Under the pieces are notes generated by a model. It ran no database searches. It was not told the origin of the DNA and was given only the letters and a program-made list of their open reading frames with translations. DNA of 64,000 bases from Escherichia coli (lineage in GTDB: Bacteria > Pseudomonadota > Gammaproteobacteria > Enterobacterales > Enterobacteriaceae): NCBI RefSeq assembly GCF_048403405.1, contig NZ_CP183129.1. One strand, 5' to 3'. The translations under genes and the position numbers were made by a program. Below, in pieces: positions 44,295-60,018 of the stretch; within the stretch, counting starts at the first letter, position 1; each line of letters starts with the position of its first letter.

Positions 44295-44963
44295 ATGGTG
44301 AAATCAATGAAAAAAAACACAGATGATGGGGCTAAAATTTACACACCACTTACCCTAAAGCTTTATGACTGGTGGGTTTTGGGAGTATCAAATCGGCTTG
44401 CATGGGGATGTCCTACAAAGGAACACCTTCTTCCACACTTTCTGGAACATGTAGGTAACAACCATCTGGATATTGGTGTTGGAACTGGGTTTTACCTTAC
44501 TCACGTACCTGAGAGTAGTCTGATATCTTTAATGGATTTGAACGAAGCTAGCCTGAACGCGGCATCTACAAGGGCTGGGGAATCAAAAATTAAACATAAA
44601 ATTAGCCATGATGTTTTTGAACCTTATCCCGCGGCGTTACATGGTCAATTTGATTCCATTTCCATGTTTTACCTTCTTCACTGCCTGCCTGGAAATATAT
44701 CTACAAAAAGCTGTGTAATACGCAATGCGGCGCAGGCCTTAACTGACGATGGAACTCTATACGGAGCCACAATTCTTGGCGATGGAGTTGTGCACAATAG
44801 CTTCGGTCAAAAACTGATGCGCATTTACAATCAGAAAGGCATCTTTTCAAACACAAAAGATTCCGAAGAAGGCTTAACACATATACTCTCAGAGCATTTC
44901 GAGAATGTTAAAACCAAGGTTCAAGGTACTGTAGTAATGTTTTCCGCTTCAGGGAAAAAATAG
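44295..44963 (+). CDS. Class I SAM-dependent methyltransferase (prophage moron)
   Basis: 222-aa ORF with Rossmann motif I (HLDIGVGTGFYL) and acidic motif II (LISLMDLNEASL); markedly AT-rich relative to flanks; opposite strand to phage structural genes; alternative start at 44307 (MKKNTDDG). Confidence 0.7.
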   Translation: MVKSMKKNTDDGAKIYTPLTLKLYDWWVLGVSNRLAWGCPTKEHLLPHFLEHVGNNHLDIGVGTGFYLTHVPESSLISLMDLNEASLNAASTRAGESKIKHKISHDVFEPYPAALHGQFDSISMFYLLHCLPGNISTKSCVIRNAAQALTDDGTLYGATILGDGVVHNSFGQKLMRIYNQKGIFSNTKDSEEGLTHILSEHFENVKTKVQGTVVMFSASGKK

Positions 44964-53482: not shown

Positions 53483-54163
53483 TTACCCCTGCCGCCCGAT
53501 AACCACGACCTTTCCGCCCCCGCCTTCATCACGGGTGCTGATGTCCTGGGATATACGGCGGGAGCCAACCAGCATTTCCCCGTAAGGCACCGGCATCGGG
53601 TTCCCCTGGGCAATCATGTTATCCAGCGAGGAAAAGTACGTGTTCTGTCTGCCGTTATCCGTTGCGCGGTAATCCGGTGTTTTTGCCTTCGGGGCCAGCA
53701 TCTGGGCCACTCCGCCCAGTATCATGCTGGCACCCAGTGAAAACAGCATCGTGGTGGCAGAAAAACCACCGGCACTCAGGGCTGTACCCCATAACGCCAT
53801 CGAGCCTCCGGCCGTGAAGAAAGAGCCCACGATGGCTGCCGCCCCCAGCACAATCTGCAGTCCACCCTTTCCGGCCCCGGCCAGTCGCGGCACAATGTGG
53901 ATGACCGTTCCCTCACCCAGCTGTTCGTGAAGACGGGCGTACACCGCCTCCGGTGCCGTGTCATCACCGGCAATACGTATCTGGTACCAGCCTTCGTTCA
54001 TCTGACGGCGAAAGCCCGGCATCTGCATCGACAGGGCGCGAATGGCTTCCGCTGCCGTGTTCACATACAGGCTGAGGCGGCGGCCAAATCGTTGTAAATC
54101 CCCGTGAAGGCAGATGCGTGCCAGTGGCGGTGACGCCAGACAGAATGCGTTCGTCGTTGCCAT
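53483..54163 (-). CDS. I: Tail assembly protein I
   Basis: 226-aa ORF, lambda I-like, overlaps K. Confidence 0.8.
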   Translation of the reverse strand: MATTNAFCLASPPLARICLHGDLQRFGRRLSLYVNTAAEAIRALSMQMPGFRRQMNEGWYQIRIAGDDTAPEAVYARLHEQLGEGTVIHIVPRLAGAGKGGLQIVLGAAAIVGSFFTAGGSMALWGTALSAGGFSATTMLFSLGASMILGGVAQMLAPKAKTPDYRATDNGRQNTYFSSLDNMIAQGNPMPVPYGEMLVGSRRISQDISTRDEGGGGKVVVIGRQG

Positions 54164-54806
54164 TTTTCGGAATACCTCTCCCGTTTACTCAGTTGTTCAG
54201 GCAGATGGTGAAGCAGCTCACCGTTACCGCAGTAAATGGCGGCATGGTTCGGTACCGAAGCACCAAAGCAGCACAGCAGAATATCGCCCGCCTGTGCAGA
54301 GGACAGGGGCACCCGGTAAAAGCCGGTGACCGCCATATTGTCCAGGTAAAGGTTCTGGCCGTTGCGCCACCAGTCATCCTCGCGATGAAAATCCGGCATT
54401 TCAGTCCCCGCCAGATGATAAGCATCCCGGAACAGCGTGTAACAGTCCGTCACCCCGTGCTCAAAGCGCCGTCCCGTCAGATGTGGCACACAGCGGAATT
54501 TGTGAATGTCACCCCGGCAGACCAGCCACCAGGGCAGTGCGCTTTTTATCTGCAGCCGCCGGTCAGCCTCGCTCAGCCAGGGCAGCCCACCGGGATGACT
54601 GTGGACCAGTGCCACAATCTCCCCCTGCATCTCTGCCCGCAGCCAGTCTTCCGGTGCGATACGAAAATACGCCTCCGGCTCCGCGGAAATATTCACACAA
54701 GGGATATACCACTCCCCCTCCGGCGTGCTTATCACGAAGCCGCACGACTCCGCAGGCGCACACCGCCGGGCATGTGCCAGAATCGCTGATTCAGTCTGTG
54801 TCATAA
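54061..54806 (-). CDS. K: Tail assembly protein K (NlpC/P60–JAB-like)
   Basis: From MTQTESAILAHARRCAPAESCGFVISTPEGEWYIPCVNISAEPEAYF... with HSHP motif; ORF in track extends upstream to 55065. Confidence 0.8.
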
Positions 54807-55513: not shown

Positions 55514-55842
55514 CAGTTCACCACCTGCTTAAACTCCGCGCTGAACTCAACGCGCAACATCCCGACCCGCGCAGACCACCCGGCACAGGTCACCTTTATC
55601 TGCCGGTATGCATAGGGTGGCTTCCACAAAAATGCCTTCCAGCCACCGTGCTCTGCCAGGAACGCTTCCAGATGCCGGGCCTCCTCCCGGGTCACGGAAA
55701 GCGTCACCCTGTATGTTTTCAGGTCAGCATTCAGCCCTGCCGCCATACGCTGTGAGTACCCGTCACCAAAACGCACTTCACGCACCGATGGCTGCGAGTT
55801 CACCTCCATATCCGGCTTCACTTTCCAGCGAAATGTTTTCAT
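55513..55842 (-). CDS. M: Minor tail protein M
   Basis: 109-aa ORF MKTFRWKVKPDMEVNSQPSVREVRFGDGYSQR... Confidence 0.85.
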   Translation of the reverse strand: MKTFRWKVKPDMEVNSQPSVREVRFGDGYSQRMAAGLNADLKTYRVTLSVTREEARHLEAFLAEHGGWKAFLWKPPYAYRQIKVTCAGWSARVGMLRVEFSAEFKQVVN

Positions 55843-58400
55843 CGCCCGCTCCCCGATAACAGACCGCCATCACGCAACTGCAGCCGGAGCTCATCCTGCG
55901 CACCTTTACGGGCCATCTCATACACCGCTTTCATCAGCTGCGGCCCGGCCTGTCCGTTGATACCGTCGTTCTGAATCACCACGTGATTGTTCTGATTAAA
56001 ATTAATGCCTTCGGCCCGCCGCATCTGCGCCGGACTTCCGGCAGCACCCACATACCCCCCTTCCGCATAGCCCCGCATCAGGCGGTACAGGTTCCCGACA
56101 CCAATCCGGCTGGTTGCCTCCTTCGTGAAGACAAACTCCCCGCGGTGGACAATCCCCGCTGGCTCATATTTGCCGCCGGTTCCCGTAAATCCTCCGGTCG
56201 CAAAATGGAATTTCGCCGCAGCTGCCTGAATGGCTGTACCGCCTGACGCGGATGCGCCACCACCAACAGCCCCGCCAATAGCGCTGCCGATACTCCCGAC
56301 AATCCCCACCATTGCCTGCTTAAGCAGAATTTCTGTCATCATGGACAGCACGGAGCGGGTGAAGCTGCGCCAGTTCTGCTCACTGCCGGTCAGCATCGCC
56401 GCCATATTCTGTGCAATACCATCAAAGGTCTGCGTGGCAGCACTTTTTACCTGCGACATACTGTCCGTGGCACTCTCTTCCCACTCACTCCAGCCGGACC
56501 TGAGGCCTGCCATCCAGTTCCCGCGAAGCAGGTCTTCAGCCGCCCAGGTCTTTTTCTGCTCTGACATGACGTTATTCAGCGCCAGCGGATTATCGCCATA
56601 CTGTTCCTTCAGGCGCTGTTCCGTGGCTTCCCGTTCTGCCTGCCGGTCAGTCAGCCCCCGGCTTTTCGCATCAATGGCGGCCCGTTTTGCCCGTTGCTGC
56701 TGTGCGAATTTATCCGCCTGCTGCGCCAGCGCGTTCAGGCGCTCCTGATACGTAACCTTGTCGCCAAGTGCAGCCAGCTGGCGTTTGTACTCCAGCGTCT
56801 CATCTTTATGCGCCAGCAGGGATTTCTCCTGTGCAGACAGCTGGCGACGTTGCGCCGCCTCCTCCAGTACCGCGAACTGACTCTCCGCCTTCCACAAATC
56901 CCGGCGCTGCTGGCTGATTTTCTCATTCGCTCCGGCATGCTTCTCCAGCGTCCGGAGTTCTGCCTGAAGCGTCAGCAGGGCAGCATGAGCACTGTCTTCC
57001 TGACGATCGCCCGCAGACACCTTCACGCCGGACTGTTTCGGCTTTTTCAGCGTCGCTTCATAATCCTTTTTCGCCGCCGCCATCAGCGTGTTGTAATCCG
57101 CCTGCAGGATTTTCCCGTCTTTCAGTGCCTTGTTCAGTTCTTCCTGACGGGCGGTATATTTCTCCAGCGGCGTCTGCAGCCGTTCGTAAGCCTTCTGCGC
57201 CTCTTCGGTATATTTCAGCCGTGACGCTTCGGTATCGCTCTGCTGCTGCGCATTTTTGTCCTGTTGAGTCTGCTGCTCAGCCTTCTTTCGGGCGGCTTCA
57301 AGCGCAAGACGGGCCTTTTCACGATCATCCCAGTAACGCGCCCGCGCTTCATCGTTAACAAAATAATCATCCTTGCGCAGATTCCAGATGTCGTCTGCTT
57401 TCTTAAACGCAGCCTCTGCCTTAATCAGCATCTCCTGCGCGGTATCAGGACGACCAATATCCAGCACCGCATCCCACATGGATTTGAATGCCCGCGCTGT
57501 CCTGTCTGCCCAGGTCTCCAGCGTGCCCATGTTCTCTTTCAGGCGGCGGGTCTGGTCATCAAACCCTTTCGTTGCGGCCTCGTTCGCCGCCTGCAATGCC
57601 CCGGTTTCATCGCCGGAACGCTGCAACTGAGCAACATACGCAATCTGCTCCGCCGTCACGTTATGGAACTGCTTCGCCATCGCAATCAGCCCCGACGTCG
57701 GGTCAGTGGTCAGTTTTCCGAAAGCCTCTGCAACCTTGTCCACCTCCACACCGGATGCAGAAGCAAAACGCGCGACACTCTGGTTGATGGCATCAAACTG
57801 TTCACCACCACGCACACCGGCATTCACCATGGCTGCCAGTGACTCACTCGCCTGGTTAAACGTCAGCCCTGCGGCCTGTCCGGCTCTGGAGAGCGTCAGC
57901 ATGCGATCGGCAGTCAGTCCGGACTGATTACCGGAAAGAACCAGGGTTTTATTAAACGCTGAAAGCGTGGAATCTCCCTGGTACCAGGCGTACACCAGCG
58001 CACCTGTCGCCACCGCCAGCGAGGTGACCCCGACCATCGGCAGGGTGATCGCACCGGCAAGCCCCCTGAACATGGGGATCATCCCGCCGAAGGAGTCCTT
58101 CACCTGACCGCCCTGTTGCAGCAGGATCAGCCAGGGATTCTGACCACCGGCAAGCTGCGTGGCGATATCCGTAAACTGTGCGGGCAGGGTTCGCATGGCC
58201 GCTTTATACTGCCCGACGGAAATCCCTGCTTTTTGTGCAGCCAGCGCCTGGTGGCTCAGCCCCTGCTCAACGACAGTTGCGGTTTTTCTGGCGTCAGTAT
58301 CCAGACCTGAAAAATGACGCCTTACCCGGCTCATCTGCTCATCGAAACGGACCGCATCCAGACTCAGGTCAATAACAAGATCACCAACCGGCTGGGACAT
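55839..58400 (-). CDS. H: Tail tape-measure protein H
   Basis: 853-aa ORF, near-identical over long stretches to lambda H as I recall it (MSQPVGDLVIDLSLDAVRFDEQMSRVRRHFSG...). Confidence 0.9.
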   Translation of the reverse strand: MSQPVGDLVIDLSLDAVRFDEQMSRVRRHFSGLDTDARKTATVVEQGLSHQALAAQKAGISVGQYKAAMRTLPAQFTDIATQLAGGQNPWLILLQQGGQVKDSFGGMIPMFRGLAGAITLPMVGVTSLAVATGALVYAWYQGDSTLSAFNKTLVLSGNQSGLTADRMLTLSRAGQAAGLTFNQASESLAAMVNAGVRGGEQFDAINQSVARFASASGVEVDKVAEAFGKLTTDPTSGLIAMAKQFHNVTAEQIAYVAQLQRSGDETGALQAANEAATKGFDDQTRRLKENMGTLETWADRTARAFKSMWDAVLDIGRPDTAQEMLIKAEAAFKKADDIWNLRKDDYFVNDEARARYWDDREKARLALEAARKKAEQQTQQDKNAQQQSDTEASRLKYTEEAQKAYERLQTPLEKYTARQEELNKALKDGKILQADYNTLMAAAKKDYEATLKKPKQSGVKVSAGDRQEDSAHAALLTLQAELRTLEKHAGANEKISQQRRDLWKAESQFAVLEEAAQRRQLSAQEKSLLAHKDETLEYKRQLAALGDKVTYQERLNALAQQADKFAQQQRAKRAAIDAKSRGLTDRQAEREATEQRLKEQYGDNPLALNNVMSEQKKTWAAEDLLRGNWMAGLRSGWSEWEESATDSMSQVKSAATQTFDGIAQNMAAMLTGSEQNWRSFTRSVLSMMTEILLKQAMVGIVGSIGSAIGGAVGGGASASGGTAIQAAAAKFHFATGGFTGTGGKYEPAGIVHRGEFVFTKEATSRIGVGNLYRLMRGYAEGGYVGAAGSPAQMRRAEGINFNQNNHVVIQNDGINGQAGPQLMKAVYEMARKGAQDELRLQLRDGGLLSGSGR

Positions 58401-58845
58401 ATCTCACACCTCCCGGAATCCCCGCTGAAGCCATCATTAATGCGGCATCATCCACCATGACATCCGCCACATCCGCAGACGATAAAATATCGCGCCCTCC
58501 GTCCCCACCGAACCGGACGCCTCCGGCAAGTCCTGCCGCTTTCTGCATCAGCATTTTGTCCTCATCCGGCCTCTCCACCTGCTCTTCCTCATGCCGGGGG
58601 ACAAGCAGACTGAAATCAGAGGGATGCATATCCGGATCGCAAAAAAACAGGCTGAGTACAGCGTACGTCAGCCCGGAAAAATGCATATCCAGCTGGGTAT
58701 CCTGAAAATAATGCGTGCGGTAAAAACGGTGCCAGTCGGCATATTCGGTGGATGTCATCCCGGCAAGCATGGCGCGCCAGTCGGGTCTCCCCATCTCACG
58801 CGCCAGTCTGAGGGCAAAGTTCAGCTCGCCGTCGAAGACTTTCCC
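58381..58845 (-). CDS. T: Tail assembly protein T, expressed as G-T fusion via programmed -1 frameshift
   Basis: ORF in -1 frame relative to G beginning at the slippery site; T-like sequence (…AMLAGMTSTEYADWHRFYRTHYF…). Confidence 0.75.
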   Translation of the reverse strand, partial: GKVFDGELNFALRLAREMGRPDWRAMLAGMTSTEYADWHRFYRTHYFQDTQLDMHFSGLTYAVLSLFFCDPDMHPSDFSLLVPRHEEEQVERPDEDKMLMQKAAGLAGGVRFGGDGGRDILSSADVADVMVDDAALMMASAGIPGGVRYVPAGW

Positions 58846-59252
58846 GCAGAAAAATCATCATCAGTCAGCGTGTTATTTTTCGCCACTTCAGTAATATCAG
58901 TATCCGGACGAACAGCTTCGATCATCCCGGACAGGCACAACACCACGTCTTCCGCCCGGGCAATGGCATCGGCAGGCCAGGTGGTGAGCACTTCCTGCTC
59001 TATCTTCATCACGGCCTCATTCATTGACGGTGACCCCGTTTTCTGCGGATGGTTATGCCACAGGGACATCGCCACCAGAAACGCGCCGGTTCTGACGAGA
59101 TCTTCCACGCTTACCTGCAGGTTGCCGCTGGATTCTGCCTGTTCTGCACGCCGTTTCAGGAGGGCAAGATGCTCGATACGCTGCAGCGCAGACAATTCGG
59201 AAAGCGTGACAGACACACCGTTATATTCAAATTGTTCTGTTTTCAGAAACAT
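58821..59252 (-). CDS. G: Tail assembly chaperone G
   Basis: 143-aa ORF MFLKTEQFEYNGVSVTLSELSALQRIEHLALLKRRAEQAESS... Confidence 0.85.
   Translation of the reverse strand: MFLKTEQFEYNGVSVTLSELSALQRIEHLALLKRRAEQAESSGNLQVSVEDLVRTGAFLVAMSLWHNHPQKTGSPSMNEAVMKIEQEVLTTWPADAIARAEDVVLCLSGMIEAVRPDTDITEVAKNNTLTDDDFSAGKSSTAS
58839..58845 (-). other. G-T programmed -1 ribosomal frameshift slippery heptamer G GGA AAG
   Basis: Minus-strand sequence gcG GGA AAG tct near the 3' end of G, same heptamer as lambda. Confidence 0.8.
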
Positions 59253-59265
59253 GTATTACCTCCGT

Positions 59266-60018
59266 TTACCCTGCAGCGCCCGCTTCAGTAACGGTGACTT
59301 GAGCCACTGCGGCGAACTGACCATTTCCGCTCACCACAGGGATCTGCACCTTACCTGTCGCCACGCCGTTTACCGTAATTGTCATATCTTTCACACTAAT
59401 GGTGGCTTTCGACGGATCGGCGGAAACCGCTCTGAACGTCTTGTCGGTTGCACTTTCCGGCTCAAAAGAAACCGTCAGGGTGGTTGTTTTCCCTTTTGCC
59501 ACCGTACCGGATGTAGGCGTCACCTTAATCGCACTGACCGGCGTAATTTTGCTGCGTTCTTCCGCTACAGAAGGTTTACCCACGTTAGTGACTTTCACCG
59601 TGCGGGTGATCACTTCTTTCGCCGTCACGGCCTTACCGATACTGCTGACCCAGCCACGAAACACATCCACCGTGCCATTCGGAAAACGGATTTTATAGGC
59701 CCGGACATCGCCGCTTTCAAACCAGCCTATAAGCCCTTTCTGGCCTTCCTCTCCCGGTTTCCAGGCCAGCGTAAAACTGGTATCACCTGCAGATTTCTGC
59801 CCCTGCCCGGTCGCGGTCCAGTCCGCGTCTTCATCATCCAGGTAGTTATCATCGTAGGATTCTGCCGTCATCTCGCCCGGCGTCAGATCCTTCACCTTAG
59901 CCAGTCGCTGCCAGTCATCGTCTGACAACGGGTTTGCATAAGCATCACCCTTGCCGTTGTAAACCCACAGAGTGGTACCGGCACCTTTTACCGGCTCAAG
60001 GGGATTTGGTGTTGCCAT
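59266..60018 (-). CDS. V: Major tail protein V (with C-terminal Ig-like domain)
   Basis: 250-aa [60 protein letters not shown]... Confidence 0.9.

Follow-up and report, generated by a model that had tools for sequence, protein, structure and literature searches.

The end of gene G in a lambdoid prophage of Escherichia coli raises the question of how the T reading frame behind it is translated: by ribosomes that shift from the G frame, as in phage lambda, or from a start of its own. A further question is whether the arrangement belongs to a prophage still able to build tails. We analyzed the locus in a window of 64,000 nucleotides of an E. coli chromosome, the term referring to the whole stretch of DNA at its full length. 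Judging from sequence features, the site is very probably the programmed -1 ribosomal frameshift of the lambda-type tail chaperone genes G and T, carried by a lambdoid prophage beside potB. This is the classic lambda G/GT frameshift, a textbook recoding signal that is already known; the lambda case was reportedly described by Levin, Hendrix and Casjens in 1993 and by Xu, Hendrix and Duda in 2004, 2013, and 2014. The anatomy, homology, site conservation, and gene context given below come from this analysis, and the occurrence of the shift, its rate, and the chaperone roles are taken from lambda.

Slip site, reading frames, and the predicted fusion protein

The G-T junction comprises the following features, with the basis of each in parentheses.

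58821..59252, minus strand: gene G, tail assembly chaperone, 143 codons (open reading frame list and translation)
58839..58845, minus strand: slippery heptamer G GGA AAG, Gly137-Lys138 of G, the probable -1 shift site (sequence and lambda alignment)
58821..58854, minus strand: 34-nt G/T overlap with both frames open, bounded by the first open base of the T frame and the last base of the G stop (stop-codon map in three frames)
58381..58839, minus strand: T segment, GT residues 139-290, with base 58839 read twice, ending in TGA 58383..58381 (translation and profiles)

G starts at ATG 59252, preceded by the Shine-Dalgarno sequence GGAGG at 59263..59259, and stops at TGA 58823..58821. Its final codons are TCT GCG GGA AAG TCT TCG ACG GCG AGC TGA. 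The heptamer GGGAAAG, at 58845..58839, is phased as G GGA AAG within the G frame, in the context GC[G GGA AAG], 7 codons ahead of the stop, and it aligns base for base with the lambda site (J02459 10109-10115). An earlier note on this DNA had claimed that the lambda heptamer is kept at the end of G; it is, on the minus strand, which the note had left unnamed, and the interval given there, 58821-58845, turned out to be exactly the heptamer through the G stop. The note had also described the T frame as open downstream in the -1 frame and had named a -1 stop directly after the slip site as the observation that would count against it. No such early stop was found, since 154 sense codons separate the heptamer from TGA 58383..58381. 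The nearest -1-frame stop upstream is at 58857..58855, and the frame thus opens 9 nt before the heptamer.

Counted simply as a word, GGGAAAG occurs in 8 copies in the window, compared with 8.23 expected from dinucleotide shuffles. Enrichment of the heptamer was therefore rejected as evidence, and what is informative is its position and phase. We searched the 8 GGGAAAG and 36 XXXAAAG heptamers on both strands of the window for frameshift geometry, defined as 80 or more open codons upstream in the 0 frame, a 0-frame stop no more than 15 codons further on, and a -1 frame open for 80 codons or more. Only the copy at the end of G showed this geometry, with 137 codons open upstream, the 0-frame stop at 7 codons, and the -1 frame open for 154.

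Translation of G through the heptamer with a -1 shift, the check proposed in the earlier note, joined 59252..58839 to 58839..58381 and gave a predicted fusion of 290 aa, composed of G residues 1-138 and the -1 frame. It was 71% identical to lambda gpGT (reference built from J02459) and colinear with it end to end (E 1e-139). Both parts carried the signatures of their families. The G protein matched Pfam Phage_TAC_2 (PF06894; E 2.5e-50), and residues 1-138 matched the NCBIfam equivalog TIGR01674 phage_lambda_G (E 1e-47; 161.5 bits, with a cut-off of 74.45). On the T side, Pfam Phage_tail_T (PF06223) matched GT residues 167-245, and the NCBIfam equivalog TIGR01715 phage_lam_T matched residues 143-252 from profile position 1 (209.1 bits, with a cut-off of 77.35). 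PHROG 32165, a 290-position profile of fusion proteins, covered GT 1-290 (E 1.6e-187). With its colinear fusion, its G and T signatures, and the lambda gene order V-G-T-H, the tail chaperone frameshift arrangement appears intact, as the note had proposed.

The likeness to lambda is closest at the site itself. The heptamer and its phase are identical in the two, as are its distance of 18 nt from the G stop and the fusion junction SAGK/VFDGEL (the slash marking the shift), and the DNA block TTTCTGCGGGAAAGT.TTCGACGG.GAGCTGA is almost invariant between window and lambda, whereas about 70 nt of G just upstream of that block can barely be aligned. H is 853 aa long in both. The window differs from lambda in the lengths of G (143 aa here and 140 in lambda) and GT (290 and 279 aa); in the ~25 C-terminal G residues before the slip site and the two acidic linker segments of T, which have diverged, with indels; in the opening of the -1 frame, 34 nt before the end of G here and 64 nt in lambda; and in the T/H overlap, 20 nt here and 8 nt in lambda.

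Conservation of the site among homologues

Similar DNA was found in 143 records of a phage collection, and 185 records of that collection had a tblastn match; the matches listed all consisted of two pieces joined together, the pattern that two reading frames would give. From phage records and IMG/VR we gathered 311 loci in which the T motif is present. All of them (311/311) have, in frame and at the homologous place inside the G/T overlap, a slip site of the form A_AAG or A_AAA. The heptamers were distributed as follows.

GGAAAAG: 219 loci, plus 2 with a second candidate
GGGAAAG: 83 loci, plus 1 with a second candidate
GGGAAAA: 3 loci
AAAAAAG: 2 loci
CGAAAAA: 1 locus

Among the 88 distinct segments from these 311 loci, the slip site always lay exactly 13 codons before the motif LARE(M/F)GRPDWR, without indels. 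On this comparison of sequences, the window carries the canonical lambda form of a site in which the A_AAG lysine codon is the part that does not vary. Named relatives illustrate the range: the slip site is G GAA AAG in mEp213, mEp237, cdtI, and a Providencia phage, and A AAA AAG in the Stx1/VT1-Sakai phages. The window shares with them the two-ORF architecture, the 13 codons to LARE(M/F)GRPDWR, and the invariant A_AAG half. It differs from them in the first half of the heptamer, the lambda form being present in about 84 of the 311 loci vs 221 with GGAAAAG.

Most G-T homologues outside the lambda/Stx2 group carried G GAA AAG, an imperfect X XXY YYZ heptamer (221 IMG/VR loci, e.g., L099, L177, and L262; L088-L093). 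A few loci had G GGA AAA or C GAA AAA, and only A_AAR is conserved as the second half across all of these forms.

In the 18 nt that code in both frames, homologues differ mostly by substitutions that keep the T-frame residue and change the tail of the G protein. Examples are GTC/GTG/GTT, read as Val in the T frame and as Ser, Cys, or Phe in the G frame, and GGC/GGT, read as Gly in the T frame and as Ala or Val in the G frame. The stronger constraint therefore appears to lie on the T frame. Distant copies, those of Stx1/VT1 and L004, also alter T-frame residues (in Stx1, V to A and D to E).

Damaged relatives were present as well. In the IMG/VR locus L006, G lies in a different frame upstream of the heptamer, through an indel or an assembly error, and in another IMG/VR locus the T frame is cut at 94 codons (the IMG/VR fragments concerned being L006 and L069). 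Decayed G-T pairs therefore do occur.

Prophage context and the state of the tail module

Positions 40000-64000 of the window are 99.9% identical to E. coli strain MS 69-1, in which a lambdoid prophage of ~48 kb lies beside potB and extends from integrase and excisionase through the tail fibres. The gene order V-G-T-H-M-L-K-I-J-lom-stf-tfa is that of lambda, and V-G-T-H, from the tube gene to the tape-measure gene, lie together on the minus strand. V is directly upstream of G, and the first 20 nt of H, counted from its ATG at 58400, are shared with the end of T.

59266..60018, minus strand: gene V, major tail tube protein, 250 aa (Pfam Phage_TTP_12, E 2.4e-69, and a Big_2 domain)
55839..58400, minus strand: gene H, tape measure protein, 853 aa (Pfam TMP_2 and Tape_meas_lam_C)

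The earlier note had gone further and taken the preserved site as support for a tail module that still works and has not decayed. Z, U, V, H, M, L, K, I, and J were each full length against Pfam profiles, and between terminase and side tail fibre no gene of the sister prophage in MS 69-1 is flagged as a pseudogene, both of which are consistent with a working module. Function itself is not demonstrated by open reading frames and a site of 7 nt. The assessment of the tail module covers the genes within the window, whose sequence breaks off in the head scaffold/protease gene, before portal and terminase could be judged. An intact slip site is consistent with a working tail module without proving one, and its intactness is informative only weakly because damaged G-T copies occur elsewhere.

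The chief competing reading is that the sequence is intact in a prophage that is now cryptic, leaving the frameshift as a relic with no present biological role. This is possible but rather unlikely. In its favor, a few partial genes were flagged in the early and lysis regions of the sister prophage (YdfR, DUF1737, and a DicB fragment), and G-T pairs with a truncated T frame (94 codons) or a frame-disrupted G exist in IMG/VR. Against this, every tail gene checked is full length, and the sister prophage retains integrase, excisionase, repressor/Cro, replication, Q, lysis, terminase, portal, and head genes. The G-T segment is also 99.1% identical to the deposited phages PhiR12_1, _2, _4, and _5, whose records give E. 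coli K-12 or C as host; a literature search found no paper describing the PhiR12/PhiR5 phages and their viability. Site integrity and full-length tail genes together make a modest point for a frameshift site in a prophage still able to build tails. That capacity bears on whether an E. coli prophage can be induced and can transduce.

Two further genes of the prophage region deserve mention. A class I SAM-dependent methyltransferase gene (44295-44963, plus strand) lies between fragments of tail-fibre assembly genes and potB, at the prophage end and on the opposite strand; in the sister genome a partial tail fibre assembly pseudogene flanks it, and the gene has the look of inserted cargo, a 'moron'. 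The K-like tail tip protein (54061-54804, minus strand) is 247 aa long, with JAB and NlpC/P60 domains; lambda K has 199 aa. The longest open reading frame in the K region, of 334 aa from a TTG, runs well into gene L and is probably spurious.

The start of T, the surrounding RNA, and the proposed shift

In the sister prophage, RefSeq/PGAP annotates G and T as two coding sequences without slippage, the second being a 'phage tail assembly protein T' of 137 aa. Stand-alone T coding sequences that begin at the internal ATG and lack a slippage join were also seen in several phage records (58381-58794 in the window; 16161-16574 in L003).

58792..58794, minus strand: internal ATG, Met154 of GT, RefSeq start of the separate T coding sequence; probably no real start

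T could accordingly be an independent gene read from ATG 58794, with the heptamer incidental, a reading for which the PGAP annotation and the presence of an ATG in the T frame speak. Several observations stand against it. Missing from the separate-T annotation are 16 residues, the first conserved ones of the T frame, which are encoded between heptamer and ATG (VFDGELNFALRLARE...) and kept at the protein level in lambda and in distant relatives; the TIGR01715 match begins at GT residue 143, 11 residues upstream of Met154. The nearest purine-rich stretch, GTGAG, abuts ATG 58794 with zero spacer, so a properly spaced Shine-Dalgarno sequence is absent there; by contrast, the start codons of G and H are preceded at 6-9 nt by GGAGG/GGGAGG. 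The residue corresponding to Met154 is Phe, not Met, in most homologues, which therefore have no start at that position. In lambda, in addition, Levin et al. 1993 reportedly found that no free gpT is made. With the profile starting upstream, the 16 codons conserved, no spaced Shine-Dalgarno sequence, and Phe in homologues, it is very unlikely that ATG 58794 is the real start of T. Independent initiation there was rejected, and a separate T gene beside an incidental heptamer is highly improbable. The annotation of a separate 137-aa 'T' should give way to a G/GT pair with ribosomal slippage at 58839. This correction is the main practical consequence of the site, which has little importance beyond it.

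Frameshifting into T being the preferred reading, the RNA on either side of the heptamer was searched for elements that might stimulate it, of the kind on which the dnaX/IS3 type of bacterial -1 frameshift depends: a Shine-Dalgarno-like element upstream and a conserved, stable RNA structure 5-9 nt downstream. Upstream, no Shine-Dalgarno-like element was found ~10-14 nt before the heptamer, where ...CTGACTGATGATGATTTTTCTGC contains no GGAG/AGGA-like motif. Downstream, minimum free energy (MFE) folding predicted one structure.

58761..58831, minus strand: predicted mRNA structure 3' of the slip site, with a putative role (MFE folding)

The predicted structure has an 8-bp outer stem, 58831..58824 paired with 58768..58761, that begins 7 nt after the heptamer and encloses an imperfect predicted hairpin at 58805..58770. 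It was assessed by MFE z-scores, RNAalifold, pair counts with shuffled and slid controls, and synonymous recoding of nine clade representatives. The MFE was -41.4 kcal/mol in the window (z -3.6 vs dinucleotide shuffles), and lambda, with the same architecture, gave -38.7 kcal/mol (z -1.55). Across 12 homologues, 82% of cells were paired vs 27-46% in slid controls, and the covariation score was 0.176 vs 0.108 in shuffles, with 0/500 reaching it, both values being obtained on the same sequences from which the structure was derived. Some compensatory changes were present in the outer stem, again in the sequences that had yielded the structure. One apparent compensatory change, from G-C to A-U, separates the lambda-type from the N15-type clades; this outer-stem pair joins position 1 of a Gly/Ser codon with a synonymous Ala GCC/GCU site.

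Synonymous recoding gave a mixed picture. The z-score was -1.96 in the window; the cdtI type gave -1.7, lambda -1.3, and Stx1 -1.0, and N15-type representatives ranged from -1.3 to -3.2; in two other clades it was +2.2 and +1.3, that is, the native sequences folded worse than their recoded controls. The inner hairpin is mostly forced by a peptide palindrome, Ala-Arg...Arg-Ala, and recoded sequences still fold at about -34 kcal/mol. A clearly conserved stimulatory element was not established by the folding, covariation, or recoding tests, and no mention of a 3' stimulator for lambda G-T was found in the literature searched, which did not include the primary papers of Levin et al. 1993 and Xu et al. 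2013. On these models, it is possible but unlikely that the G-T mRNAs of the lambda and N15 types share a conserved 3' stimulator, an 8-bp stem enclosing a GGCGCG...CGCGCC hairpin, that would help to set the gpG:gpGT ratio.

The proposed shift would proceed as in lambda. Most ribosomes on the late mRNA would read G to its stop and yield gpG of 143 aa. A small fraction would slip back by one base while tRNA-Gly occupies the P site and tRNA-Lys the A site, the tRNA-Gly re-pairing from GGA to GGG and the tRNA-Lys from AAG to AAA. By analogy to lambda, about 3-4% of ribosomes would continue in this way in the T frame and produce the 290-aa gpGT. Many gpG and a few gpGT molecules would then coat the tape measure protein H, and the T domain would recruit the tube protein V and start its polymerization; neither gpG nor gpGT would be expected in the virion, if the prophage behaves as lambda does.

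In lambda, slippage on G GGA AAG yields gpG and gpGT at ~30:1, a ratio that is critical, and both products have roles in tail assembly (PMC5009743). Both are needed at the correct ratio for tail assembly, according to Xu et al. 2013 as cited in PMC5009743. The 0 frame is kept in ~96% of cases, and the mnm5s2U modification of tRNA-Lys tunes the shift (PMC3296357; PMC7618472); in the lambda slip scheme, the single E. coli tRNA-Lys has the anticodon mnm5s2UUU (PMC5009743; PMC3296357; PMC7618472). E. coli dnaX (tau/gamma) offers a second comparison, in which the single tRNA-Lys slips on A_AAG within A AAA AAG and two products with a shared N-terminus are made at a set ratio (PMC5009743). The site in the window resembles it in that a -1 slip would likewise be made by the single tRNA-Lys on an A_AAG A-site codon. 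The dnaX frameshift reaches ~50%, and what drives it is a Shine-Dalgarno-like element upstream together with a strong hairpin on the 3' side. Unlike dnaX, the site in the window has no upstream Shine-Dalgarno-like sequence and only a putative 3' structure, and its rate, by analogy to lambda, would be a few percent.

Slippage of RNA polymerase, as opposed to the ribosome, is associated with homopolymer runs of about 7 or more A/T. That the G-T fusion arises by such transcriptional slippage is extremely improbable, for although either mechanism would give the same protein and two relatives carry A AAA AAG, with 6 consecutive A, no run in GGGAAAG exceeds three bases, and the lambda frameshift rate responds to tRNA-Lys anticodon modification, pointing to the ribosome (PMC3296357).

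One minor point concerns the lambda literature. In the text of PMC3296357 (Maynard et al. 2012), the slippery sequence of lambda appears as GGGTTTG (GGT-TTG / GGG-TTT), and Table 1 of the same paper gives GGGAAAG; the former is a typographical slip, not a biological variant.
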